A stretch of 11,122 bases of DNA from an uncultured archaeon (GCA_964468895.1 CAYXWT010000025.1:1-11122), one strand, 5' to 3'; positions 1-11,122 are shown, counted from the stretch's first letter. A program made the numbers and translations. The notes: generated from the sequence alone by a model not told the origin.

Positions 1-241
1 ATGGAATCCTGCTAACTTAGTAATTTTAGATACTCAATTTAGTGCAAATCCTAAAGTTATTGTTGGTGGATATTTAGTAAATACTTTAGCTGAAGGTATT
101 GGTTTAGAAGATGTTATAACAACTTCTGCTGACTACGTTGTTGGTAAAAATGCTACTGGTAATATAGTTGTTGCTGGTATGGATGCTGCTGACACTGAAA
201 CTGCTGCTAGAGAATTAATTACTGCTATTGAAGCAATGTAA
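1..241 (+). CDS. 3' end of a larger gene (5'-partial, frame 2). The C-terminus resembles the C-terminal region of Methanococcales-type S-layer proteins.
   Basis: The frame is open from the window edge to TAA 239-241: ...PKVIVGGYLVNTLAEGIGLEDVITTSADYVVGKNATGNIVVAGMDAADTETAARELITAIEAM*. Codons are GCT/GGT/ACT/GTT-biased and G+C is visibly higher than in the rest of the window, as expected for a highly expressed core gene. The product call rests on a remembered pattern (V.GG...IVVAG..A.DT..AA.ELI) and could not be searched. Confidence 0.5.
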   Translation, partial: WNPANLVILDTQFSANPKVIVGGYLVNTLAEGIGLEDVITTSADYVVGKNATGNIVVAGMDAADTETAARELITAIEAM

Positions 242-411: not shown

Positions 412-443
412 TTTTGCTATGGTTAATTATCCTTTAGCAAATA
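412..443 (+). repeat. Junction element copy J1 (most divergent)
   Basis: TTTTGCTATGGTTAATTATCCTTTAGCAAA matches the consensus TTTTGCTAYGGYCANYYAYCCTTTAGAAA. In this copy the ends TTTGCTA/TAGCAAA are perfectly complementary. Confidence 0.6.
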
Positions 444-845
444 ATATTGTTTTTGATATATATATTTTATATATGGATAAAAACAAATCTTTTATATTCT
501 TAAAAATAAAAATCTATTTAACTATAAAGTAAAACCAAGATGTTAAAAAATATAGTTTTTAATATAATAAAGTTATATTAAATATGTTATAATTGACTAA
601 TAAAATAAGCTTTTAGCACAATAATAAAAATTTGTAAGATTTACTTCAAAATAAATTATTATAGAAAGAATAGTTTGACTAATAAAGATGATCTTACAAA
701 AAACATCCAATTTTAAAATATAGATGTCTTAACTCACAAAATGATACTACCAAAAGATTTAAATATAACTTAGTTTATAATTATATTATTATGAGCCCTA
801 GAAATCCTAAGGGGTTTCTAGATGAATTTTATTTTTTTGATTTTT

Positions 846-1395
846 ATGAAAAATGTAATATTTTTTTATAGATAATGGATATTTAAAACTAATTATTAAA
901 GAATTTAAATATATTAAAATTGATATAAATAAATTATCTTTTGCTCTTTGTAAAAAATTAGATTTATGGTGTGATTCTATTTATCTTTATGATGCACCAC
1001 CATATCAAGATCCTAATTCTAAAAGTGATAGAAAAAGAAAAAGAAATTATGATAAGTTTATATCTAAACTTAAAGATAATAAAATTATTGTTAGAGAAGG
1101 TAGATGTCAAAAAATAAAAAATGAATTTCATCAAAAAGGTGTAGATACTTTATTAACTATGGATTTATTATCAGTCCCTGAAGATAAAAATATAAATAAT
1201 ATTGTTTTAGTTGCTTGTGATACTGATTTTGTTCCTGTTTTGAATAAAGTTAGGCAGAAGGGTCGTAAGGTTTATTTATTTCATTATAATGATTATAAAA
1301 GAAAATCTAAATTTTCTATGTCTAATTATTTAGAAACTGCTTGTGATAAAACTATTTTAATTAAAAGAGAAGATTTAGAAAATTCTAGATTATAA
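846..1395 (+). pseudogene. NYN/LabA-like (DUF88, PIN-like RNase) gene with a frameshift in a T7 run
   Basis: ATG 846 gives MKNVIFF and then hits a stop. Removing one T from T7 (861-867) joins it to frame 1 (868-1395): IDNGYLKLIIKEF...GRCQKIKNEFHQKGVDTLLTMDLLSVPEDKNINNIVLVACDTDFVPVLNKVRQKGRKVYLF. The FIDxxY N-terminus, KGVD and the D.DF.P...R..G..V motifs are typical of NYN domains. The ORF track shows only the last 78 aa. Confidence 0.75.
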
Positions 1396-1436
1396 AAACT
1401 TGTTTTTATAAGTCAGGTTAGATTTGGATTTGAAAA

Positions 1437-1570
1437 ATATTTCTAATATAGATACAAAAGTATTTGATCAAACAGTTAAAAGAAAGATTTTTAGATTTTT
1501 TAAAGAATTTTGGTTTCAATTAACAAAAAGAACTAAATTCTTTAAGATCACAATTTGTGACCTTAAAAAA
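1437..1570 (+). pseudogene. ORF6N-domain gene fragment (no start, no C-terminal part)
   Basis: It translates to NIDTKVFDQTVKRKIFRFFKEFWFQLTKRTKFFKITICDL. This is homologous to the VDTRILNQVVKRNISRFPKRFLFQLT... region of the other copies, and it retains the intragenic palindrome. Confidence 0.6.
1546..1562. repeat. Intragenic palindrome (ORF6N fragment)
   Basis: GATCACAA-T-TTGTGACC. The core TCACAA/TTGTGA is perfect and there is one outer mismatch. Confidence 0.8.
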
Positions 1571-1639
1571 AGGAAAAATATTTTATTGTAAAAAAATGAA
1601 TTGCTTTTTTATATTAGATATAGATGTAAATGATATTTT

Positions 1640-2102
1640 TGATAAATATGTTGTGTTTCAACAGGAAGATTAAATGAACAGGTTAAAAGAAATAAATCTA
1701 GATTCCCTAAAGATTTTGTTTTTCAATTAACCAAATCAGAAAAAGAGGTTATCGCAAATTGCGATAACCTTAACGATATTAAATATTCTCCAAAATCGTC
1801 TTTTGTATTTACTGAACAAGATGTAGCTATGCTTTCTGGGATACTAAATAGTAAAAAAGCAATAGAAGTGAATGTTCAAATTATGAGTGCTTTTGTAGCA
1901 ATGAGAAGATTTATATCTTCAAATACTTCTATTTCTAATAGATTAGAACATATTGAAAAAAAACTATAGATTATGACTCTAATTTTAAAAAAACATATCA
2001 TATAGGTGCTTCTCTTAAAGATCTTGGTAAAAAATGGTTTGCCTTTTCTAAACTTAACTTAACTTAGATATTAATAATATTTTAGATAAGTTAGATAAAT
2101 AA
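1640..2102 (+). pseudogene. ORF6N-family gene that is 5'-truncated and internally deleted
   Basis: Frame from 1670: LNEQVKRNKSRFPKDFVFQLTKSEKEVIANCDNLNDIKYSPKSSFVFTEQDVAMLSGILNSKKAIEVNVQIMSAFVAMRRFISSNTSISNRLEHIEKKL*. After the YDSNF region it jumps straight to ...YHIGASLKDLGKKWFAFSKLNL...DKLDK and TAA 2100-2102. About 324 nt are missing relative to 2167..3054. Confidence 0.75.
1746..1770. repeat. Intragenic palindrome (25 nt, perfect)
   Basis: AGGTTATCGCAA-A-TTGCGATAACCT, with 12-bp arms. It encodes VIANCDN. Confidence 0.9.
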
Positions 2103-2105
2103 TTT

Positions 2106-2134
2106 TTTTGCTACGGTCAATCACCCTTTAGAAA
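2106..2134 (+). repeat. Junction element copy J2
   Basis: TTTTGCTACGGTCAATCACCCTTTAGAAA. The T-run abuts stop codon 2100-2102. TTTAG at 2127 is 40 nt upstream of ATG 2167. Confidence 0.85.
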
Positions 2135-2166
2135 ATAACTCTTCTTTTTGAAGTCATATTATATTT

Positions 2167-3054
2167 ATGAGTAAAGATAAATTAAAAGTTGTTTCTTTAG
2201 ATAATGTTATTATCAGAAAAAAGATTTATACAATAAGAAATAAACAGGTTATGTTAGACCGAGATTTGGCTAGATTGTATGGTGTATCTACTAAAAGGTT
2301 AAATGAGCAAGTTAAAAGAAATATAGGTAGATTTCCTAAAGATTTTATGTTTCATATATATAAAAAAGAAAAAGATGAACTGGTCGCAATTTGCGACCAC
2401 CTCACATCTATTAAATTTGCATCTAGTTTGCCTTATGTTTTTACTGAACAAGGGGTAGCCATGCTTTCAGGCATATTAAATAGTAAGAAAGCAATAGATA
2501 TAAATATTCAAATTATGAGAGCTTTTGTATCTATGAAAAGATTTATTTCTTCAAATATTTCTATTTCTAATAGGTTAGAGTGTGTTGAACAAAAGCAAAT
2601 TAAATATGATTCTAATTTCAAAGAAATATTTGCAATTATTGATAGTAAAGAAAATAAATTAAAAGATCAAGGTATATTTTTTAATGGAGAAATATTTGAT
2701 TCTTATAAGTTTGTTGTTGATTTACTAAAAACTGCTAAAACCAGTATTATTTTAATAGATAATTATATTGATGAGTCTATTTTAACTTTATTTACAAAAA
2801 TAAATAAAAATATAAAAATTAAAATCTATACAAATATAAATAATAAAGTTAAATTAGATGTTAACAAATATAACTTTCAATATAATAATCTTGATGTTAT
2901 TGACTTTAAAGAGTCTCATGATAGATTTCTTATTATTGATAATAAAGAAACATATCATATAGGAGCTTCTCTTAAAGATCTAGGTAAAAAGTGGTTTGCT
3001 TTTTCTAAACTTAACCTAGATATTAATAATATTTTAGATAAGTTAGATAAATAA
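2167..3054 (+). CDS. ORF6N (KilA-N-like) domain protein with a C-terminal PLD-like (H-x-R) domain. This is the only full-length copy in the window.
   Basis: 295-aa ORF. The N-terminal part reads IYTIRNKQVMLDRDLARLYGVSTKRLNEQVKRNIGRFPKDFMF...PYVFTEQGVAMLSGILNSKKAIDINIQIMRAFV, which are classic ORF6N motifs. The C-terminal part reads SIILIDNYIDESILTL...SHDRFLIIDNKETYHIGASLKDLGKKWFAF. Confidence 0.8.
   Translation: MSKDKLKVVSLDNVIIRKKIYTIRNKQVMLDRDLARLYGVSTKRLNEQVKRNIGRFPKDFMFHIYKKEKDELVAICDHLTSIKFASSLPYVFTEQGVAMLSGILNSKKAIDINIQIMRAFVSMKRFISSNISISNRLECVEQKQIKYDSNFKEIFAIIDSKENKLKDQGIFFNGEIFDSYKFVVDLLKTAKTSIILIDNYIDESILTLFTKINKNIKIKIYTNINNKVKLDVNKYNFQYNNLDVIDFKESHDRFLIIDNKETYHIGASLKDLGKKWFAFSKLNLDINNILDKLDK
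2381..2399. repeat. Intragenic palindrome
   Basis: TGGTCGCAA-T-TTGCGACCA, with 9-bp perfect arms. It encodes VAICDH. Confidence 0.9.
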
Positions 3055-3057
3055 TTG

Positions 3058-3086
3058 TTTTGCTACGGTCAATCACCCTTTAGAAA
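3058..3086 (+). repeat. Junction element copy J3
   Basis: TTTTGCTACGGTCAATCACCCTTTAGAAA. It starts 3 nt after stop 3052-3054. TTTAG at 3079 is 40 nt upstream of ATG 3119. Confidence 0.85.
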
Positions 3087-3118
3087 ATAACTCTTCTTTT
3101 TGAAGTCATATTATATTT

Positions 3119-3480
3119 ATGAGTAAAGATAAATTAAAAGTAGTTTCTTTAGATAATGTTATTATCGGAAAAAAGATTTATACAATAAGAAATAAACAAG
3201 TTATGTTAGATAGAGATCTAGCATTTCTTTATAAAATTGAAAATAGAATTTTAAAACAAACAGTTAGAAGAAATCTAAAAAGGTTCCCTAAAGATTTTAT
3301 GTTTGAGTTAACTAATATAGAGATGGACTTTATGGTATCACAAAATGTGATACCTTCAAAAAAATATTTTGGCGGATCTAAACCATATGTTTTTACTAAA
3401 TAAGGCGTAGCTATGATTTTAGGTATCTTAAATTATAAAATTATTGTAAAGATAAATCTTCAAATTATGAGCTTTAGGAT
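3119..3480 (+). pseudogene. ORF6N-family gene with a premature stop and no C-terminal domain
   Basis: The first 30 codons are nearly identical to 2167..3054. The ORF stops at FTK* (3401-3403), where paralogs have FTEQGV. Homology continues out of ORF (GVAMILGILNYKIIVKINLQIMSF) to about 3480 and is then lost. Confidence 0.65.
3334..3354. repeat. Intragenic palindrome
   Basis: GGTATCACA-AAA-TGTGATACC, with 9-bp perfect arms. It encodes VSQNVIP. Confidence 0.9.
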
Positions 3481-3603
3481 AAAACTATTCTATAACTATA
3501 GTGTTGACCTTTTTTTCAAATATGTGTTTTTACCTAATAATATAATGTTTTTATTGTATTAATAATGTGTCTATAATATAAATAAATTTTCTAATAACAC
3601 TTG

Positions 3604-3632
3604 TTTTGCTACGGCCAATTACTCTTTAGAAA
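3604..3632 (+). repeat. Junction element copy J4
   Basis: TTTTGCTACGGCCAATTACTCTTTAGAAA. TTTAG at 3625 is 40 nt upstream of ATG 3665, although the spacer sequence differs from J2/J3. Confidence 0.85.
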
Positions 3633-3664
3633 TTAATATCATTAATTGTTTATATATATTATAT

Positions 3665-4415
3665 ATGGTTTCTAATAATTTCTCTGAATTACCTGTACAA
3701 ATAAATAATATAAAAAATAAAATATATATATTAAGAAATCAAGAAATAATAGTGGATAGAGATTTGGCCAAGTTTTATTGTGTAGATACAAGAATATTAA
3801 ATCAAGTTGTAAAACGTAATATTTCTAGATTTCCAAAAAGATTCCTGTTTCAATTGACTACTATAGAATTTAATATTTGGAAATCACAAATTGTGATGTC
3901 CAATAAAGAAAAAATGGGTCTTAGAAAAAATCCTTTTGCTTTTACTGAACAAGGTGTATCTATGCTTTCAGGTCTTTTAAATAGTAAAACTGCTATTGTG
4001 GTAAGTATCCAAATAATAGATGCTTTTGTATCTATGAGAAGATTTATATCTTCAAATACTTCTATTTCTAATAGATTAGAACATATAGAATAAAAAACTA
4101 CTGAATATGATTCTAATAGACAATTACATTGATGAGTCTATTTTAACTTTATTTACAAAGATAAATAAAAATATCAAAGTTAAAATTTATACAAATATAA
4201 ATAATAAAGTTAAATTAGATGTTAACAAATATAACTTTCAATATAATAATCTTGGTGTTGTTGATTTTAAGGTGTCTTATGATAGATTTCTTATTATTGA
4301 TAGTAAAGAAATATATCATATAGGAGCTTCTCTTAAAGATCTAGGTAAAAAGTGGTTTGCCTTTTCTAAACTTAACCTAGATATTGATAATATTTTAGAT
4401 AAGTTAGATAAATAA
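3665..4415 (+). pseudogene. ORF6N + PLD-like gene disrupted by a nonsense codon and a 140-nt deletion (track ORFs 3665..4093 and 4107..4415)
   Basis: TAA 4091-4093 sits where the intact copy has CAA. ...tatgattctaat|agacaattacattgatgag joins sequence equivalent to 2616 and 2757 of the intact copy. That is a 140-nt deletion (not a multiple of 3) between TAAT microhomologies. The downstream part is about 90% identical to the C-terminal domain of 2167..3054. Confidence 0.8.
3879..3901. repeat. Intragenic palindrome
   Basis: GGAAATCACAA-A-TTGTGATGTCC, with 11-bp arms and one mismatch. It encodes KSQIVMS. Confidence 0.85.
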
Positions 4416-4418
4416 TGG

Positions 4419-4447
4419 TTTTGCTACGGCCAGTTACTCCTTAGAAA
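4419..4447 (+). repeat. Junction element copy J5
   Basis: TTTTGCTACGGCCAGTTACTCCTTAGAAA. It starts 3 nt after stop 4413-4415 and lies about 80 nt upstream of the Bro-N gene. Confidence 0.8.
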
Positions 4448-4527
4448 CTAATATATTGTTTTGAATACATATGTATCTATGTTTAATAAGTATTTTTATT
4501 TTTTCTTAAATAATAAGAGGTGTTATT

Positions 4528-5373
4528 ATGTTATTAAAAGAAAAATCATTAGTTGTATTTCAAAATTCAAAAATTAAAAGAGCTTGGTTTAAAGATGAGT
4601 GGTATTATTCTTTGGTGGATGTTATTATGGTTTTAACAGAAAGTGTTAATCCTACTGATTATTTAAAAAAACTTAGAAAAAGAGATATTGAACTTAATAA
4701 TTACATAGGGATAAATTGTCCCTATGTGAAAATGTTAACTAAAACATATAAGGAGAGAACTTTTATTGCTGGAAATAATACAAACATTTTTCGTCTTATT
4801 CAATCAGTTTCAAGTAAAAAAGCTGAACCTTTTAAATTATGGTTAGCAAAAGTTGGAAAAGAAAGAATAGATGAAATAGAAAATCCAGAACTTGCTCAGA
4901 AAAGAATGAAAGAACTTTATAAAATGAAAGGATATTCTGAATCTTGGATTGAAAAAAGAGTTAGAGGTATTGTTATTAGAGATGAATTAACTGATGAGTG
5001 GAAAAAAAGAGATGTTCATACCAATAAAGAATTTTCTATACTAACTGCAGAAATTAGTAAAGAAACTTTTGGTATGATTCCAAGTGAGTTTAAAAATTTT
5101 AAAAGTTTAAAAAATGAAAACTTAAGAGATCATATGGATGATTTAGAACTAATATTTTCTATGCTTGGAGAAAAAGTTACAAATGAAATTACTGTTGCTA
5201 AAAATTCAAAAGGTTTTGATGAATGTGAAGTTTCTGTAAAGCAAGGAGGTCAGGTTGCAGGTAATGCTAGAAAAGATGCAGAAGACAAAATTGGAAGACC
5301 TATTATTACTAAGAATAATTTTAGAAAAATTTCTGAAAAAGATAAAACAATTTTATTAAAATCTAAAAAATAA
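4528..5373 (+). CDS. Bro-N domain protein of the DinD-like / phage-antirepressor-like family (copy A)
   Basis: 281-aa ORF with the RBS AAGAGGTG 5 nt before the ATG. The N-terminus reads VFQNSKIKRAWFKDEWYYSLVDVIMVLT (Bro-N). The C-terminal part carries SKKAEPFKLWLAKVGKERIDEIENPELAQKRMKELYKMKGYSESWIEKRVRGIVIRDELTDEW, a conserved family signature. Confidence 0.8.
   Translation: MLLKEKSLVVFQNSKIKRAWFKDEWYYSLVDVIMVLTESVNPTDYLKKLRKRDIELNNYIGINCPYVKMLTKTYKERTFIAGNNTNIFRLIQSVSSKKAEPFKLWLAKVGKERIDEIENPELAQKRMKELYKMKGYSESWIEKRVRGIVIRDELTDEWKKRDVHTNKEFSILTAEISKETFGMIPSEFKNFKSLKNENLRDHMDDLELIFSMLGEKVTNEITVAKNSKGFDECEVSVKQGGQVAGNARKDAEDKIGRPIITKNNFRKISEKDKTILLKSKK
4703..4727. repeat. Intragenic palindrome (Bro-N copy A)
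   Basis: ACATAGGGA-TAAATTG-TCCCTATGT, with 9-bp perfect arms. It encodes IGINCPYV. Confidence 0.85.
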
Positions 5374-5402
5374 GATTTATAAAAAGTAAATACTATTTAT
5401 AA

Positions 5403-6111
5403 TATTTATCTAAAAAACGGTTTGAGACATAAGTTAGTTAATAAAAAAGATTATATATCTAATCCTAAATCAGATGGTTATAGATGTATTCATTTAGTTT
5501 ATAGATTTGTTAGTGATAAAGGTAAACAAAACTATAATGGTTTACTTGTTGAAATTCAAATTAGATCTAAATTACAACATCTTTGGGCAACTGCAGTTGA
5601 AACAGTTGATTTTTTTACAAATCAAGCTATAAAATCAAATCAAGGTGACAAAGATTGGAAAGACTTTTTTAAATTAGTTAGTTCTGCATTTGCAAAACTA
5701 GAAAAATCTTCTACTATTGTAGAAGATACTCCTAATAATGAAAAAGAATTATGTTTGTGTATTAAAGAAAAAGAAGTTAAGTTAAATGCAATAAAGAATA
5801 TGAAATTATGGACTAAATCTATTAAATCTTTTGATGATTTAAAAAATAAAAAGCAAGATACAGCATTTTTTCTTTTAGAATTAGATGCAGGTTTAAATAG
5901 ATTGAATATATCTGCATATTCTAAAGCTGAAGAAGCTAAAGCTTTAGCTGATTATGCTTATTCTGAACAGAAAATTTATGGTCGTACTGAATGTGATGTT
6001 GTTTTAGTAGGTGTAGATAATTTAGTAGATTTAAAAGAAGCATATCCTAATTATTTTTTAGATACAGCTAAATTTATTAAACGTTTAGAGCGTATACTTA
6101 AAAAATATTAA
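5403..6111 (+). pseudogene. 5'-truncated RelA/SpoT-domain gene copy lacking the promoter and about 124 N-terminal codons
   Basis: 5403-6134 equals 9903-10634 at an offset of exactly 4500 nt, with a single mismatch (5430 T vs 9930 C). There is no ATG, and the track ORF 5422..6111 begins at an internal TTG (Leu in the full copy). The DIAGCRCVV motif region is missing. Confidence 0.85.
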
Positions 6112-6134
6112 TTAAAACTACTAATAATCATCAT
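5403..6134 (+). repeat. Near-identical direct repeat, copy A (732 nt)
   Basis: Line-by-line comparison with 9903-10634 shows 1 mismatch in 732 nt. Confidence 0.95.
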
Positions 6135-6148
6135 TTTTTTCTTTATTT

Positions 6149-6177
6149 TTTTGCTATGGCTACTTACCATTTAGTAA
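6149..6177 (+). repeat. Junction element copy J6
   Basis: TTTTGCTATGGCTACTTACCATTTAGTAA, preceded by oligo-T tracts downstream of the RelA/SpoT stop. TTTAG at 6170 is 39 nt upstream of the remnant ATG 6209. Confidence 0.75.
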
Positions 6178-6208
6178 TTAACACCGTTTTTAGATATCTA
6201 TTTTATAT

Positions 6209-6495
6209 ATGTATTAAAATAATTTAAAGGTTCTACTTTTAGAAACAGATATTATTAAGAAAAAGATTTATACAATAAGATAACAATTCATAATGTTAGA
6301 TAGAAATATTGCAAAATTATATAATGTTTTAACAGGGAGATTAAACAAATAAGTTAAAAGGAATATAAAAAGATTTCCTAAAGACTTTATGTTTTAATTA
6401 ACTGAATGTGAGAAAAAAGAGGTTGTCGCAATTTGCGATAACCCTAATAGTGTTGTAGTTTTACTTAAATTGTTATTTGTATTTGCAGAATAAGA
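6209..6495 (+). pseudogene. Heavily decayed ORF6N gene (several in-frame stops, truncated after the FTEQ region)
   Basis: IIKKKIYTIR*QFIMLDRNIAKLYNVLTGRLNK*VKRNIKRFPKDFMF*LTECEKKEVVAICDNPNSV...FVFAE*. This is clear ORF6N homology interrupted by stops, and the palindrome is retained. Confidence 0.75.
6421..6443. repeat. Intragenic palindrome (in the decayed ORF6N)
   Basis: GGTTGTCGCAA-T-TTGCGATAACC, with 11-bp arms and one G/T apposition. Confidence 0.85.
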
Positions 6496-6521
6496 TTTAA
6501 TATAAATGTAAGCTAATATAA

Positions 6522-6800
6522 TTAATCATATTTTTTAGTATAAATTTTATTTCTATGGTCAAAATATCTAAAAATAACTAAATTTATATTAGGTTTTATT
6601 TCAAAAATTAAAACAAATTTTTCAGTAATATGTACTCTCTTATATTTTTGAAGTGGTCTTCTAAGGTTTTTATAATGTTCGATATATTTAGAATTTTTAA
6701 TTTCTTCAATTTTGTGAATCAATATGGTTGCTAGTGTTTTGTCTTTTTGGGATAACTTTTTAATAATGTTATCTAGTTTAGGATGTATCTCATAATCCAT
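6522..6800 (-). CDS. RelE/ParE-superfamily type II toxin (mRNA interferase-like)
   Basis: 92-aa ORF with LSQKDKTLATILIHKIEEIKNS...YKNLRRPLQKYKRVHITEKFVLIFEIKPNINLVIFRYFDHRNKIY. This follows the typical RelE/StbE layout (K..L.g.l..y.R.+i...+rliy.i......v.i....hR...Y). Its start lies 1 nt after the stop of the upstream small ORF. Confidence 0.8.
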   Translation of the reverse strand: MDYEIHPKLDNIIKKLSQKDKTLATILIHKIEEIKNSKYIEHYKNLRRPLQKYKRVHITEKFVLIFEIKPNINLVIFRYFDHRNKIYTKKYD

Positions 6801-6801
6801 C

Positions 6802-7053
6802 TTACTCTAATTTATATCTTTTTTTAAGATCACCTAATTTATTAAATTTAAATCCAGAACCAATTTTATATTTTTTATCACCATTTTGTATCTTTTTTAT
6901 AAATTTTGGTTTTAATTTAGGTTCTAATTCATTTTTTGCATAATACCTTACAACCACTGATATTGTTTCAGCTTTGTTTTTTAGATTATTCTTTGCTTTT
7001 ATAATATTTAGAGTTTGGTTTATATCTGTAGGTAAATCTAATAACGCTTTCAT
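6802..7053 (-). CDS. Cognate antitoxin, archaeal DUF2683-like / RHH-like
   Basis: MKALLDLPTDINQTLNIIKAKNNLKNKAETISVVVRYYAKNELEPKLKPKFIKKIQ...LGDLKKRY. I prefer ATG 7053 over the track's TTG 7065, because GGTGAT (7058-7063) lies 4 nt upstream of that ATG. The family call is from memory of LN.VKAKYGLKNKSEAI...LEPELKPEF antitoxins. Confidence 0.65.
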   Translation of the reverse strand: MKALLDLPTDINQTLNIIKAKNNLKNKAETISVVVRYYAKNELEPKLKPKFIKKIQNGDKKYKIGSGFKFNKLGDLKKRYKLE

Positions 7054-7093
7054 AATAATCACCAAGCATCCCCAAAAAAAAGTTTTTAGGTGT

Positions 7094-7107
7094 TATTTAA
7101 ATATAAA
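7094..7107 (-). promoter_or_regulatory. Candidate archaeal TATA box for the toxin-antitoxin operon
   Basis: The minus strand reads AAAAG-TTTATATTTAAATA about 54 nt upstream of ATG 7053, followed by a leader containing GGTGAT. An AACCTA-N9-TAGGTT inverted repeat (7131-7151) lies just upstream. Confidence 0.3.
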
Positions 7108-7411
7108 CTTTTTTTTCTTTGTATGTTCTAAACCTAAATAGATTCTAGGTTCAGTATATATTATAAATAGAAATGTTAATAAATGTTAATATTAGTTAGG
7201 TTTATTTTTAAGCAGTTTCTAAAAAATAAAAAGAGTAATAAAAGTCTATTTACATAAATATGCTATTAGAGGATATATATTTTATTTAGAAGTTGTTGGT
7301 AATTATATATTTATTAAACCAAAATTTACTTAGAAGATTTTATTAATAAATTGTTCTTGCATTTACAGTTCTAATTATGGTTTTATAGGTTGAAATAAGA
7401 TGTTTATTTTA

Positions 7412-7440
7412 TTTTGCTAAGGCCATCTACCCTTTCGAAA
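7412..7440 (+). repeat. Junction element copy J7
   Basis: TTTTGCTAAGGCCATCTACCCTTTCGAAA. Its end lies 44 nt upstream of ATG 7484. Confidence 0.7.
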
Positions 7441-7483
7441 AGGATATCTAAATCAAATTCTATAGTATATCTGATGATTATTT

Positions 7484-8333
7484 ATGATTAGTAAAAAATC
7501 AATTAAATTATTTGAAAATAAAAAAAGTACGAGTTTCTTGGGATGAAGATAAAGAAGAATGGTATTTTTTTATAGTTGATGTAATAAAAATATTAACAGG
7601 GATTGTTTATTCTAATGCTTATTGGAGAAAATTAAAGCAAAGGTTAAAAGAAGAAGGAAATCAAACCGTGACAAATTGTAACACTTTGAAAATGCGTTCT
7701 CTTAATGGAAAAATGAGACTTACTGATACAGGAACTACAGAACAAATATTAAGATTAATTCAATCAATTCCTTCAAAAAAAGTTGAACCTTTCAAAATTT
7801 GGTTAGCAAAAGTTGGAAATGAAAGAATTAATGAAATGTATGCCCCTGAACTTGCAATTGAACGAGCTATGAATACTTATTTACAAAAAGGATATTCAAA
7901 AGATTGGATAAATCAAAGATTAAAAACTATTGAAGTAAGAAAAGAATTAACAGATGAGTGGGTAAGAGTAGGAATAGAAAAAAGAACATATTTTGCAATA
8001 CTTACAAATGAAATTATAAAAGCATGGTCTGGTAAGTCTATTAAAGATTATAAAAAATTAAAAAATCTTAAAAAAGAAAATCTTAGAGATAATATGAGTA
8101 ATCTTGAGCTTATTTTAAATATGCTTACTGAGGCAACTACCAAAGAAATCTCTGAAAAAGAAGATCCTTCTAATTTTAGTGAAAGTAAAGAGATTGCTAT
8201 AGAAGGAGGAACAACTGTAAAAGTTGCAAAGGATAGAATTGAAAAAAGATTAGGTAAAACAATAGTTACCTCTAAAAATGCAAAAGAAATTTGTTTTAAA
8301 GATAAGAAAAGATTATTAAAACCCAAAAAATAA
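7484..8333 (+). pseudogene. Bro-N/DinD-like gene (copy C) with a +1 frameshift in an A7 run. It could alternatively be an N-terminally shortened CDS from TTG 7512.
   Basis: ATG 7484 gives MISKKSIKLFENKK, the canonical Bro-N start. The frame then shifts within A7 (7520-7526). Removing one A continues as VRVSWDEDKEEWYFFIVDVIKILT...SKKVEPFKIWLAKVGNERINEMYAPELAIERAMNTYLQKGYSKDWINQRLKTIEVRKELTDEW. Confidence 0.7.
7668..7684. repeat. Intragenic imperfect palindrome (Bro-N copy C)
   Basis: GTG-ACAA-A-TTGT-(AA)-CAC. It encodes VTNCNT. This is the weakest member of the set. Confidence 0.5.
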
Positions 8334-8444
8334 TTATTAAAGGCAAAACATTGATAAATGGTTTTTTTATTTATATTTAATTATTAAACTATTAAATTTT
8401 ATTTATAAAGTAGTATCTATTATTAAATAATAAGAGGTGTTATA

Positions 8445-9302
8445 ATGTTATTAAAAGAAAAATCATTAGTTGTATTTCAAAATTCAAAAATTAGAAGAAC
8501 TTGGTTTAATAATGAATGGTGGTTTGTAATAAAAGACATAATTTCTGTACTTACAGATTCTAAAGATCCTTCAGATTATTTAAAGAAATTAAGAAAAAGA
8601 GATCCTTATTTACAAAAGATATTTAAAGGGGGGGGACAATTTGTCCCCCCCCTTGGTTTAGAGTTTGATACTGTTGGTGGTGTACAAATGATTCAATGTT
8701 GGAATACATCAGGTCTGTTTAGACTTACTCAATCTATATCTAGTAAAAAAGCTGAACCTTTCAAAAGATGGCTTGCTAAGGTTGGTTATGAAAGAATAAA
8801 AGAAATAGAAAATCCTGAACTTGCTCAAAAGAGAATGAAAGAACTTTATAAACTAAAAGGATATTCAGAATCTTGGATTGAAAAAAGAGTTAGAGGTATT
8901 ATTATTAGAGATGAATTAACCGATGAATGGAAAGAAAGAGATGTTAATACTAATAAAGAATATTCTATACTAACAGCAGAAATAAGTAAAGAAACTTTTG
9001 GTATGACTCCTAGTGAGTTTAAAGATTTTAAAAATCTAAAAAATGAAAACTTAAGAGATCATATGAATGATTTAGAACTAATATTTTCTATGCTTGGAGA
9101 AAAAGTTACAAATGAAATTACTATTGCTAAAAATTCAAAAGGTTTTGATGAATGTGAAGTTTCTGCAAAACAAGGTGGTCAAGTTGCAGGTAATGCCAGA
9201 AAAGATGCAGAAGACAAAATTGGTAAACCTATTATTACTAAAGATAATTTCAAAAAAATTTCTGAAAAAGATAAAAAAAGTTTGTTAAAATCTAAAAAAT
9301 AA
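8445..9302 (+). CDS. Bro-N/DinD-like protein (copy B)
   Basis: 285-aa ORF with the RBS AAGAGGTG. By eye it is about 90% identical to copy A over the C-terminal 190 aa and about 70% over the N-terminal 50 aa. The central patch is replaced (FKGGGQFVPPLGLEFDTVGGVQMIQCWNTSGLF). Confidence 0.8.
   Translation: MLLKEKSLVVFQNSKIRRTWFNNEWWFVIKDIISVLTDSKDPSDYLKKLRKRDPYLQKIFKGGGQFVPPLGLEFDTVGGVQMIQCWNTSGLFRLTQSISSKKAEPFKRWLAKVGYERIKEIENPELAQKRMKELYKLKGYSESWIEKRVRGIIIRDELTDEWKERDVNTNKEYSILTAEISKETFGMTPSEFKDFKNLKNENLRDHMNDLELIFSMLGEKVTNEITIAKNSKGFDECEVSAKQGGQVAGNARKDAEDKIGKPIITKDNFKKISEKDKKSLLKSKK
8626..8654. repeat. G8/C8 hairpin-forming palindrome inside Bro-N copy B
   Basis: AA-GGGGGGGG-ACA-ATT-TGT-CCCCCCCC-TT, with G8 at 8628-8635 and C8 at 8645-8652. 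The stem is 13 bp and the loop 3 nt. It encodes KGGGQFVPPL. Confidence 0.95.
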
Positions 9303-9531
9303 GATTTATAAAAAGTAAATATAGTTTATAATAAATTTGAAATTGTTTTTTAATTTTATGCGCAGTTTTGTGTTTTTTGAAAATGCAATTGCTATTTTAA
9401 TTTAGGTAGTATTCTATAGTGCTTATTTTAGTGATTGTTTTGACATAATTGTTTTTTTCAGTTTCTGCGCAAAACAACGTTTTTTTGAAATACACATTAG
9501 TTTTAAAACCATTTTGTTTAATAAATATATT

Positions 9532-10611
9532 ATGAAATATATAAACCCTAAACTATATTCTAAATCTAAAACTAATAAGGCTGCTGAACATCTTTGTCAT
9601 TTTACTGGTAATTATAAAGATATTTCTAAAACTGAAAGCAATTATTTAAAAATTATGGATAATTGGAGAAGTGCTCACAATTATCCTTTATCTATATTTA
9701 TAAAAAGATTAAAAAGAATAACTAAAGTTGCAGATTCTAAAAGTATTTGTAGTCAAAGACTTAAAAGAATGCCTTCTATTATTAAAAAGTTGAATAGATC
9801 TTATGTTGGTAATGAGCCTACTATGAGATATACTCAAATGCAAGATATTGCTGGATGTAGGTGTGTTGTTTCTACTTTAAAAAAAGTAAATACTGTATAT
9901 GATATTTATCTAAAAAACGGTTTGAGACACAAGTTAGTTAATAAAAAAGATTATATATCTAATCCTAAATCAGATGGTTATAGATGTATTCATTTAGTTT
10001 ATAGATTTGTTAGTGATAAAGGTAAACAAAACTATAATGGTTTACTTGTTGAAATTCAAATTAGATCTAAATTACAACATCTTTGGGCAACTGCAGTTGA
10101 AACAGTTGATTTTTTTACAAATCAAGCTATAAAATCAAATCAAGGTGACAAAGATTGGAAAGACTTTTTTAAATTAGTTAGTTCTGCATTTGCAAAACTA
10201 GAAAAATCTTCTACTATTGTAGAAGATACTCCTAATAATGAAAAAGAATTATGTTTGTGTATTAAAGAAAAAGAAGTTAAGTTAAATGCAATAAAGAATA
10301 TGAAATTATGGACTAAATCTATTAAATCTTTTGATGATTTAAAAAATAAAAAGCAAGATACAGCATTTTTTCTTTTAGAATTAGATGCAGGTTTAAATAG
10401 ATTGAATATATCTGCATATTCTAAAGCTGAAGAAGCTAAAGCTTTAGCTGATTATGCTTATTCTGAACAGAAAATTTATGGTCGTACTGAATGTGATGTT
10501 GTTTTAGTAGGTGTAGATAATTTAGTAGATTTAAAAGAAGCATATCCTAATTATTTTTTAGATACAGCTAAATTTATTAAACGTTTAGAGCGTATACTTA
10601 AAAAATATTAA
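9532..10611 (+). CDS. Stand-alone RelA/SpoT-domain nucleotide pyrophosphokinase (small alarmone synthetase / toxSAS-like) with an uncharacterised C-terminal extension of about 150 aa
   Basis: Synthetase motifs are present: YSKSKTNKAAEHL, MQDIAGCRCVV, SDGYRCIHLVYRF and LLVEIQIRSKLQHLWATAVE. There is no HD hydrolase, TGS or ACT region. I prefer ATG 9532 (MKYINPKLYSKSK) over the track's TTG 9514. Confidence 0.85.
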   Translation: MKYINPKLYSKSKTNKAAEHLCHFTGNYKDISKTESNYLKIMDNWRSAHNYPLSIFIKRLKRITKVADSKSICSQRLKRMPSIIKKLNRSYVGNEPTMRYTQMQDIAGCRCVVSTLKKVNTVYDIYLKNGLRHKLVNKKDYISNPKSDGYRCIHLVYRFVSDKGKQNYNGLLVEIQIRSKLQHLWATAVETVDFFTNQAIKSNQGDKDWKDFFKLVSSAFAKLEKSSTIVEDTPNNEKELCLCIKEKEVKLNAIKNMKLWTKSIKSFDDLKNKKQDTAFFLLELDAGLNRLNISAYSKAEEAKALADYAYSEQKIYGRTECDVVLVGVDNLVDLKEAYPNYFLDTAKFIKRLERILKKY

Positions 10612-10634
10612 TTAAAACTACTAATAATCATCAT
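9903..10634 (+). repeat. Near-identical direct repeat, copy B (732 nt)
   Basis: Partner of 5403-6134 at an offset of exactly 4500 nt. Confidence 0.95.
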
Positions 10635-10649
10635 CTTTTTCTTCATTTT

Positions 10650-10678
10650 TTTTGCTATGGCCACTTACCCTTTAGAAA
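10650..10678 (+). repeat. Junction element copy J8
   Basis: TTTTGCTATGGCCACTTACCCTTTAGAAA. TTTAG at 10671 is 40 nt upstream of ATG 10711. Confidence 0.85.
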
Positions 10679-10710
10679 AGAACTAGGTTTTTCATAGTGA
10701 TAGTATATTT

Positions 10711-11122
10711 ATGTCTAAAAATAAATTAGAAATTATTTCTTTAAAAGATTCTACTATTAAAAACAAAATTTACTTAATAAGAGAAAAACAAGTTATGATA
10801 GATCGAGATTTAGCTAAATTATATAGTGTGTCTACTAAAAGATTAAATGAACAAGTTAAAAGAAATATAGATAGATTTCCTGAGGACTTTATGTTTCGTA
10901 TAGATAAAAATGAAAAAGATGAGCTGGTCGCAATTTGCGACCACCTCAAATCTATTAAATTTGCATCCAGTTTACCATTTGTCTTTACTGAACAAGGAGT
11001 AGCTATGCTTTCAGGGATACTAAATAGTAAGAAAGCAATAGATATAAATATTCAAATTATGAGAGCTTTTGTATCTATGAAAAGATTTATTTCATCTAAT
11101 ATATCTATTTCTAATAGATTAG
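10711..11122 (+). CDS. ORF6N-domain protein, 3'-partial (runs off the window)
   Basis: The frame is open from ATG 10711 to the window end: MSKNKLEIISLKDSTIKNKIYLIREKQVMIDRDLAKLYSVSTKRLNEQVKRNIDRFPEDFMFRIDKNEKDELVAICDHLKSIKFASSLPFVFTEQGVAMLSGILNSKKAIDINIQIMRAFVSMKRFISSNISISNRL. It is close to 2167..3054. It is absent from the ORF track because there is no stop in the window. Confidence 0.85.
   Translation, partial: MSKNKLEIISLKDSTIKNKIYLIREKQVMIDRDLAKLYSVSTKRLNEQVKRNIDRFPEDFMFRIDKNEKDELVAICDHLKSIKFASSLPFVFTEQGVAMLSGILNSKKAIDINIQIMRAFVSMKRFISSNISISNRL
10925..10943. repeat. Intragenic palindrome
   Basis: TGGTCGCAA-T-TTGCGACCA, identical to 2381-2399. Confidence 0.9.

Follow-up and report, generated by a model that had tools for sequence, protein, structure and literature searches.

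In the Thermococcales the glycolytic motif TATCAC-N5-GTGATA is bound by regulators of the TrmB family. The archaeal core promoter comprises an 8-bp TATA box centred at about -27, a BRE (B recognition element), rich in A, at about -33, an A/T-rich element at about -10 and a pyrimidine at -1, and leaderless archaeal mRNAs have an ATG without a Shine-Dalgarno sequence (PMC5316973). Integron cassettes are exchanged at attC, a structure-specific site that takes the form of an imperfect hairpin in single-stranded DNA (PMC9668308). Among single-gene defence candidates, a representative of PDC-S05 is reported to protect E. coli against T4, T5 and T7 (bioRxiv 10.1101/2024.09.26.614923), and PDC systems are reported to be enriched in DPANN archaea (PMC12988326). 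Here we describe a 29-nucleotide (nt) element that recurs eight times in an 11,122-nt stretch of DNA from an uncultured archaeon (GCA_964468895.1 CAYXWT010000025.1:1-11122; the whole stretch is referred to as the window). A first, sequence-only reading took the repeats for the junctions of an integron-like cassette array; the repeats are real, yet the interpretation as a recombinase site does not stand up to the tests that were possible. The element is on balance probably the conserved core of a family-specific upstream control region, promoter and operator together, of ORF6N (PDC-S05) and Bro-N (PDC-S13) genes in a narrow clade of very A+T-rich DPANN archaea, where the shared block would also be homology for unequal crossover.

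The consensus has exactly eight matches in the window at three mismatches or fewer (J1 to J8, Table 1), all on the plus strand, and none in 200 dinucleotide-preserving shuffles of the window. An nhmmer profile built from 21 unique instances, the eight in the window and 13 on related contigs (labelled L with a number), returns the same eight copies and none on the minus strand, which bears out the copies and positions listed by the sequence-only reading; a minus-strand match of a loose regular expression, within an FTEQGVA coding motif, was judged to be chance. Alignment of the copies with their flanks reveals that the conserved unit exceeds 29 nt and runs on for ~32 nt further to an invariant TAT.TATG, the ATG of which is the start codon of the downstream gene or remnant (473, 2167, 3119, 3665, 4479, 6209, 7484 and 10711). 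Across the relatives the element follows the pattern TTGCTAYGGCCA-N3-ACCC-TTTAGAAA, the informative positions being G5, C6, A8, G10, G11, C12, C13 and A14 and then A18, C19, C21, T22-24, A25, G26 and A27-29. The layout of the spacer, an 8-mer followed by T5, an A/T-rich tract and the ATG, is common to all ORF6N-type copies.

Six of the eight window copies head ORF6N genes or their decayed remnants (the MDK-type start of the J1 remnant resembles intact ORF6N genes of L039 and L043), J7 heads a Bro-N gene, and J5 combines an ORF6N-type block with a Bro-N leader. Every window copy has an ORF6N or Bro-N start downstream of it in the same orientation, and so do 12 of the 13 further unique copies; L024:4583 is the sole exception. 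The sequence-only reading was therefore right that the element precedes these two unrelated families, but its statement that the element delimits cassettes and always lies between them does not hold. The element is tied to the 5' end of ORF6N and Bro-N genes and is absent at five places in the window: between the NYN gene and the ORF6N remnant (~1395-1412), where Bro-N 4528-5373 meets the RelA remnant, where Bro-N 7484-8333 is followed by Bro-N 8445-9302 and this in turn by RelA 9532-10611, and at the minus-strand pair 6522-7065. It does not precede any of eight core genes of the related contig L051 (proteasome, Spt5, L11, SecE, FtsZ, aCPSF1 and others), nor any other gene in the low-G+C loci that were scanned, which with overlapping copies amount to ~86 kb. 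The sequence-only reading had held that a motif found upstream of many unrelated core genes genome-wide would be an ordinary promoter motif; the element is absent before the L051 core genes and is therefore not a general promoter motif, and its distribution is that of a regulon operator, at a fixed position before one functional group and absent elsewhere. Among the 21 instances the core has a mean pairwise identity of 78%, against 42% for the 30 nt upstream of it and 48-52% for the spacer, which points to selective conservation and not to shared descent alone; genes with unrelated flanks, encoding proteins that are only 69-72% identical, still share the element.

The distance to the start codon separates the two types of copy. 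Counted from the element's first base, the ORF6N-type start lies at 61 nt in 11 of the 12 unique scored copies and at 60 nt in the twelfth (J6, outside the scored set, also has 60 nt); the codon is ATG in 11 and GTG in L047. No Shine-Dalgarno-like string is present in 10 of these 12, and the GAGGT of the other two, 12-16 nt upstream, is too far away. The Bro-N-type copies have offsets of 72, 85, 88 and 101 nt, with 109 nt at J5, and mostly possess a Shine-Dalgarno sequence of the GGTGA/AGGTG type (decayed in the pseudogene L053:1297; the J7 leader has GATGA where L039 and L043 have GGTGA); the core genes of L051 use GGTGA-like sequences too. A distance that is fixed only where the Shine-Dalgarno sequence is absent is what would be expected of an element that defines where a leaderless or near-leaderless mRNA begins. 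At J2, J3 and J5 the preceding stop codons (2100-2102, 3052-3054 and 4413-4415) do lie 3 nt before the element, as had been noted, and only ~64 nt separate the stop from the ATG, so that any gene-specific promoter must overlap the element.

In the arrangement that we propose, the 5' two-thirds of the element (TTGCTAYGGCCA-N3-ACCCTTT, ~-59 to -38 from the ATG) would be the site of a sequence-specific factor, for which the ORF6N or Bro-N DNA-binding protein itself is a candidate. The A-rich 3' end (AGAAA, or CGAAA in the J7 type) would act as a BRE-like element, with a weak A/T 8-mer at the TATA position and an A/T-rich proximal tract next to it; the ORF6N type would begin at a leaderless or near-leaderless ATG at a fixed distance, and in the Bro-N types the Shine-Dalgarno leader would let the ATG distance vary. 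With the ORF6N ATG taken as the transcription start site, AGAAA/CGAAA falls at -37 to -33 and starts 36-37 nt before the ATG, the predicted TATA position (-32 to -25) holds the weak A/T 8-mers ATAACTCT, ATAATATT and TTAATATC, and ATATTATATTT occupies -11 to -1 in the ORF6N-type blocks, with T at -1; an A/T-rich stretch near -10, a pyrimidine at -1 and an ATG without a Shine-Dalgarno sequence are thus all present. A Woesearchaeota-labelled ORF6N homologue that lacks the element, L054, carries GAGAAA-TATATAAA, with AGAAA at -36, a canonical TATA box at -31 to -24 and 23 nt between this box and the ATG, the same register as in the ORF6N-type blocks. Box B, at the 3' end of the element, becomes TTTCGAAA in J7-type copies and TTCCGAAA in L072, a variation that speaks against a TATA box and is compatible with a BRE or a factor site. 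A TATA box at TTTAGAAA is weakened by these variants and would lie 10 nt too far from the ATG. The weak TATA position together with the specific, G/C-containing 5' part suggests dependence on an upstream-binding factor. A scan for sigma-70 promoters was uninformative in 78% A+T DNA (94 sites against 90.5 expected), and the host is archaeal. The block is common to co-oriented tandem paralogs and would therefore offer homology for unequal crossover and gene conversion, which would be why gene units begin exactly at the 5' edge of the element.

Several points count against this assignment. The predicted TATA position holds a weak 8-mer (ATAACTCT, AGAACTAG) in a genome of 80% A+T, and the promoter may instead be arranged in an alternative register, with TTTAGAAA as the TATA box and a leader of 9-10 nt. 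Most of the window copies head pseudogenes, and their present-day function is doubtful. Homology breakpoints lie no more than 3 nt from the 5' edge of the element in comparisons at 92% identity, which a recombination site predicts likewise. Of the three options in the sequence-only reading (a recombinase site, a shared promoter or operator, perhaps with a T-run terminator, and a transcribed 5' RNA element), the second is nevertheless the best supported, its terminator part being rated low.

The intact ORF6N protein of the window has its nearest named relatives in sequences labelled Woesearchaeota and Nanoarchaeota, and L051 (23.5% G+C), which carries two ORF6N genes and one Bro-N gene, has them adjoining genes for the proteasome, Spt5, aCPSF1, L11, SecE and FtsZ; its ORF6N proteins are 69% identical. 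The host is therefore a very A+T-rich archaeon of the DPANN group. In a metagenome scan true copies of the element were found solely on low-G+C contigs (0.20-0.25) from few samples, the other matches being chance occurrences in coding DNA of higher G+C. A strict pattern gave 18 singleton chance matches in unrelated taxa among the GTDB species genomes, where the host lineage is not represented; this pattern required TTTTGCTA and was too strict for the relatives found later. Three scans of IMG/VR (strict pattern, looser core and protein-guided) returned no true relative. Contigs retrieved through ORF6N homologues gave the variants ATTTACTACGGCCAATTACCCTTTAGAAA, TATTGCAACGGCCATTAAGGGTTTAGAAA and TATTGCTATGGCCAACAGGTGTTTAGAAA, the most divergent being GCTTGGCCAGGTACCCTTCCGAAAG. 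The motif was not found in the libraries or literature searched, and we found in that literature no description of a shared cis element before PDC-type genes. At L024:4583-4840 a short tandem repeat, AAGGCCCAAGC (3 units), comes after the element in place of a recognisable ORF6N or Bro-N start, and the contig ends soon after. Upstream of a Nanoarchaeota-labelled ORF6N gene of 31% G+C (L074:2249-2358, with the same sequence in L075 and L076) a palindrome, ATGGCTAATATAGGCCAT, precedes AGAAAG-N3-ATATAAAT and a leader bearing a Shine-Dalgarno sequence; a distantly related form of the element (GCTA…GGCCA…TAGAAA) may here be linked to a canonical TATA box.

That the element is a recombination site, at which a recombinase encoded elsewhere moves element and gene as integron-like, non-attC cassettes, is unlikely, although part of the evidence fits. 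Homology between units with different left neighbours starts 2-6 nt before the element in many comparisons (J8 against J2; L039 and L043 against J7, at 92% identity; L028, L047, L025, L039 and L043 against several window copies), the co-oriented copies stand in an array rich in shuffled, mosaic genes with defence candidates as cargo, and archaeal integrons, some of them in Nanoarchaeota, are on record (PMC9668308). However, a site of this kind needs neither a fixed ATG distance nor a conserved spacer; the element is lacking from five other junctions between genes and goes with two gene families, and single ORF6N genes beside core genes carry it as well (L051, L053 and L070). Cassette boundaries had been proposed as a test: breakpoints do meet the 5' edge, but the ATG is another recurrent breakpoint (homology between J3 and J5 stops there, and 4497-4603 matches 8414-8520) and further ones lie inside genes, as in the hybrid Bro-N gene of L043. 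There is indeed no recombinase in view, for no integrase, resolvase or HUH gene is found among the window open reading frames or among the called genes of those related contigs, all short, that have gene and Pfam tables; the window is collinear with the near-identical contigs L001, L002, L026 and L038. No dedicated enzyme is needed to account for the breakpoints if homologous crossover takes place between shared promoter blocks, and from the sequence comparisons we read them as crossover and gene conversion between the promoter blocks of tandem paralogs, which would yield cassette-like units without a dedicated site. It is likewise improbable that the element-to-ATG block is the exchange point of a DPANN system for shuffling candidate defence genes, unlike integrons in both site structure and enzyme; crossover would then be made by an unknown recombinase or by the ORF6N-PLD proteins themselves, because these pair a sequence-specific DNA-binding domain with a PLD-type nuclease-like domain, and the intragenic palindrome described below might be a second cis site. 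A CRISPR array was rejected, as the spacings are 546-3238 nt with genes inside.

The ends of the element are partly complementary, as had been pointed out, but they do not behave as a helix: pairing in the candidate end helix is 83.6%, shuffles giving 83.7%, compensatory changes are not in excess, and the changes T7 to A and A25 to C are uncompensated. Folds of the bottom-strand DNA have z-scores of -0.46 to +0.65 in six of the seven tested copies and -3.0 at J1; J1 reaches -2.0 as RNA, the other six span -0.5 to +1.3 for DNA and RNA together, and the folds differ from copy to copy. A hairpin or attC-like reading was rejected on these scores and the missing covariation, and the earlier judgement that this is no canonical attC site and has no long internal inverted repeat stands, no inverted-repeat core or single-strand, attC-like fold having been found. 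The same data make it quite unlikely that the element acts as RNA, whether as a 5' leader, as a site at which a polycistronic transcript is processed, or as a signal for translation that replaces the Shine-Dalgarno sequence. Co-oriented genes, 64-nt gaps, the absent Shine-Dalgarno sequence and the fixed ATG distance would suit such a role; the folds, however, are copy-specific and mostly no better than shuffles, the only plausible helix is without covariation, Rfam 15 has no family that matches the element (three sub-threshold chance matches lie elsewhere in the window), and leaderless-type initiation is used for monocistronic or first genes (PMC5316973), so that the proposed transcribed 5' RNA element finds no structural support. 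A passive paralog flank, carried along by recent tandem duplication of ORF6N genes and with no function of its own, would explain why ORF6N paralogs or remnants follow six of the eight copies and why J2/J3 and J6/J8 lie within obvious segmental duplications, but it is very unlikely given that the core is at 78% identity and the adjoining DNA at 42-52%, that the element is kept in other organisms before proteins only 69% identical, and that it also heads Bro-N genes, which have another leader. Least probable of all is a terminator or insulator of the upstream gene that acts through oligo-T, in the leading T-run or the spacer T5. Runs of 7-8 T precede GCTA at J2, J6 and J8 (J6 and J8 come, as had been noticed, after T-runs downstream of a RelA/SpoT stop), and an exact T5 occupies element positions 40-44 in nearly all ORF6N-type copies; yet the leading run has only 4 T in five window copies and is absent in relatives (ATTTACTA, TATTGCAA), it is the G/C-containing boxes and not the T-runs that are informative, and the DNA immediately upstream of J1, J4 and J7 contains no intact gene. 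The block may still terminate transcription in a secondary role.

The window has a G+C content of ~22%, and its gene map (Table 1) is based on Pfam and tblastn. Three of its families match PADLOC models (PDC-S05, 8e-107; PDC-S13, 3e-101; PDC-S33, 1e-110), and with the YafQ-family toxin these matches make the array look like a defence island. L025 shows the ORF6N gene behind J8 complete (296 aa), with another copy of the element after it.

Table 1. Coordinates of the element copies, genes and intragenic palindromes (window positions unless a contig is named).
Feature	Coordinates	Strand	Remarks
Tail of S-layer-like gene	2-241		
J1	412..440	+	Block to ATG 473-475, opening a decayed ORF6N remnant (MDKNKS...)
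NYN gene	822-1395		
ORF6N fragments	1412-2099		
J2	2106..2134	+	61 nt before the intact ORF6N/PDC-S05 gene 2167-3054; Shine-Dalgarno absent
Spacer example	2135..2169	+	Weak A/T 8-mer ATAACTCT, T5 run, A/T-rich tract ATATTATATTT, ATG, in this order
ORF6N, intact, PADLOC PDC-S05	2167-3054	+	ORF6N DNA-binding domain, long helix, PLD-like C-terminal domain
J3	3058..3086	+	61 nt before ORF6N pseudogene 3119-3472
J4	3604..3632	+	61 nt before ORF6N 3665-4093
ORF6N at J4, broken	3665-4093 + 4104-4415	+	C-terminal part resumes after a stop and an internal deletion
J5	4419..4447	+	ORF6N-type block to ATG 4479-4481, then 46-nt leader with AAGAGGTG Shine-Dalgarno, then Bro-N/PDC-S13 4528-5373
Bro-N, PDC-S13	4528-5373	+	Behind J5
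RelA/SpoT, truncated	5383-6111		Duplicate of the 9532-10611 gene
J6	6149..6177	+	Most degenerate copy (3 mismatches); 60 nt before ORF6N pseudogene remnant 6209-6451
YafQ-type toxin and DUF2683 protein pair	6522-7065	-	
J7	7412..7440	+	TTTCGAAA variant; 72 nt before Bro-N 7484-8333
Bro-N behind J7	7484-8333	+	Frameshifted in A7 run 7520-7526
Bro-N, PDC-S13	8445-9302	+	Element not upstream
RelA/SpoT-like, PDC-S33	9532-10611	+	Element not upstream
J8	10650..10678	+	61 nt before ORF6N starting 10711, which runs off the window end
ORF6N palindromes, window	1538-1570, 1746-1770, 2381-2399, 3340-3360, 3888-3905, 6420-6442, 10925-10943		
ORF6N palindromes, other loci	L043, L047, L028, L051, L070, L072, L054, L074-77; L129, L130, L132, L133, L135		The last five are plasmid loci
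Bro-N palindromes	8626-8654, 7668-7682, 4710-4724; L051:2242-2270; L039:1798-1812; L024:4002-4018		First three in the window

An AlphaFold model of the intact ORF6N protein (mean predicted local distance difference test score 81.7) shows a DNA-binding domain at the N terminus, then a helix of ~50 residues, and at the C terminus a PLD-like domain in which H251-D252-R253 and D258 are invariant. The domain order is that of TrmB and TrmBL2, which are also the best whole-chain matches in Foldseek, with E-values of ~1e-5 and low TM-scores; the C-terminal domain on its own matches Zucchini, NucT and Tdp1. Searches with the protein sequence against PDB and NCBIfam gave nothing useful.

The ORF6N, Bro-N and RelA families bear a very high load of pseudogenes (3119-3472, 3665-4415, 5383-6111, 6209-6451 and 7520-7526 in the window; L053:1382-1800; L024:3821-4030), with nonsense changes at Trp, Gln and Glu codons, such as TGG to TAG/TAA and CAA to TAA; the +1 frameshift in the A7 run 7520-7526 is found in three independent assemblies (the window, L001 and L038). 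A segmental duplication of ~90% identity relates 4497-6438 to 8414-10940, the unit consisting of Bro-N, RelA/SpoT, element and ORF6N, and in the first duplicate the N-terminal half of RelA and the region upstream of it are gone. Two similar boxes of 25-27 nt lie upstream of the intact RelA/SpoT gene (9359-9383, TGCGCAGTTTTGTGTTTTTTGAAAA; 9465-9491, CTGCGCAAAACAACGTTTTTTTGAAAT) and may be that gene's own control region.

Most of the ORF6N genes examined, on archaeal contigs and bacterial plasmids, contain a strong palindrome ~200-260 nt after the ATG, with stems of 5-13 bp, a constant CAA-W-TTG centre and outer stems that covary; in three of eight plasmid ORF6N genes it is absent or weak. Among 28 sequences, taken from DPANN archaea, from IMG/VR contigs and from plasmids of bacteria (Bacteroides, Segatella, Legionella, Treponema and Sulfuricurvum), 90.8% of cells are paired against 62.5% in shuffles, and there are 93 double-sided changes against 29.7 expected, a number reached by 0 of 500 shuffles, with slid controls giving at most 42%; caution is due with these pairing statistics, as the centres were picked by maximising symmetry within a short search range. 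The palindrome is not in Rfam, and no mention of it was found in the literature searched. Two ORF6N subfamilies translate the same palindromic DNA in different frames, as LRSQ[IF][AV]TS and as ELV[AT]xCD[HQ]L (2381-2399, …LRSQIATS…, against 3888-3905, …ELVAICDHL…; L043:553-579 against L072:1575-1593), amino-acid changes follow the partner arm (S-TCG/A-GCG, S-TCA/V-GTG, A-GCA/C-TGC and T-ACA/C-TGT), and its codons are rare in this 22% G+C genome (CTG 2%, GTC 4%, GAC 9%, TGC 9%), all of which points to selection on the nucleic acid and not on the peptide.

Bro-N genes have an analogous palindrome 171-210 nt after the ATG with a constant core, ACAA-W-TTGT, and arms that differ strongly among copies, for example AAGGGGGGGGACAATTTGTCCCCCCCCTT against TCAGTTGGCTACAAATTGTAGCCAACTGA, both with 14-bp stems, the encoded peptides differing accordingly. 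Taken over the two families together, the palindromes were placed ~170-235 nt after the ATG, with stems of up to 14 bp. The truncated ORF6N remnants 1412-1561 and 6209-6451 stop within ~10 nt past the palindrome, which suggests, from these two cases only, that it is a breakpoint hotspot. The palindrome's layout, TCAC-N5-GTGA, is that of the sites bound by the TrmB/TrmBL2 family, and binding of the ORF6N protein to its own palindrome is a testable idea. The likeness between the element and a palindrome half-site (GGYCAAT against GGTCRCAAT) is too weak to claim. In IMG/VR, TGGTCRCAAWWTGYGACCA occurs on 51 viral contigs (L078-L128) against a rough chance estimate of ~5, and an ORF6N context was found in only 3 of the 51 loci by a test that reads one fixed frame.

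Gene regulation in DPANN archaea is almost unknown, and understanding is just as poor for the single-gene defence candidates favoured by these small genomes. With a sharply defined, family-specific motif one can probe for the regulator, find such arrays and put leaderless promoter design in this group to the test. A shared promoter block can also make tandem defence genes resemble cassettes, which calls for caution in integron-style readings of repeat-punctuated arrays. The array is like an integron in its co-oriented short genes split by a repeated element, in unit boundaries at the repeat, in copies that are more similar within a genome and in its defence-related cargo. It nevertheless fails three testable criteria of an integron: an IntI-type recombinase is not found adjacent to it, on the window or the related contigs; the element has no folded single-strand structure such as the attC hairpin; and where attC stands at the 3' end of every cassette, the element stands 5' of two families, at a fixed start-codon distance in the ORF6N type. 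The attC sites are usually 57-141 nt long and the element 29 nt. The window shares with the single-gene defence islands of PADLOC its three main families, matching PDC-S05, PDC-S13 and PDC-S33, with a YafQ-type toxin pair among them, but differs in that its copies are mostly pseudogenes and share a cis element. The control region resembles an archaeal BRE/TATA promoter that carries a regulon-specific factor site in that several genes of one functional group are preceded, at a set position, by a short conserved motif, a box rich in A lies where a BRE would be expected, the proximal tract is A/T-rich, position -1 is a pyrimidine and the ATG has no Shine-Dalgarno sequence. The differences are a weak TATA position, a motif that is not palindromic, and genes that are tandem paralogs, many of them decayed, and not a dispersed metabolic regulon. 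Of these systems, the element would appear to work most like a regulon-specific upstream site joined to an archaeal core promoter.

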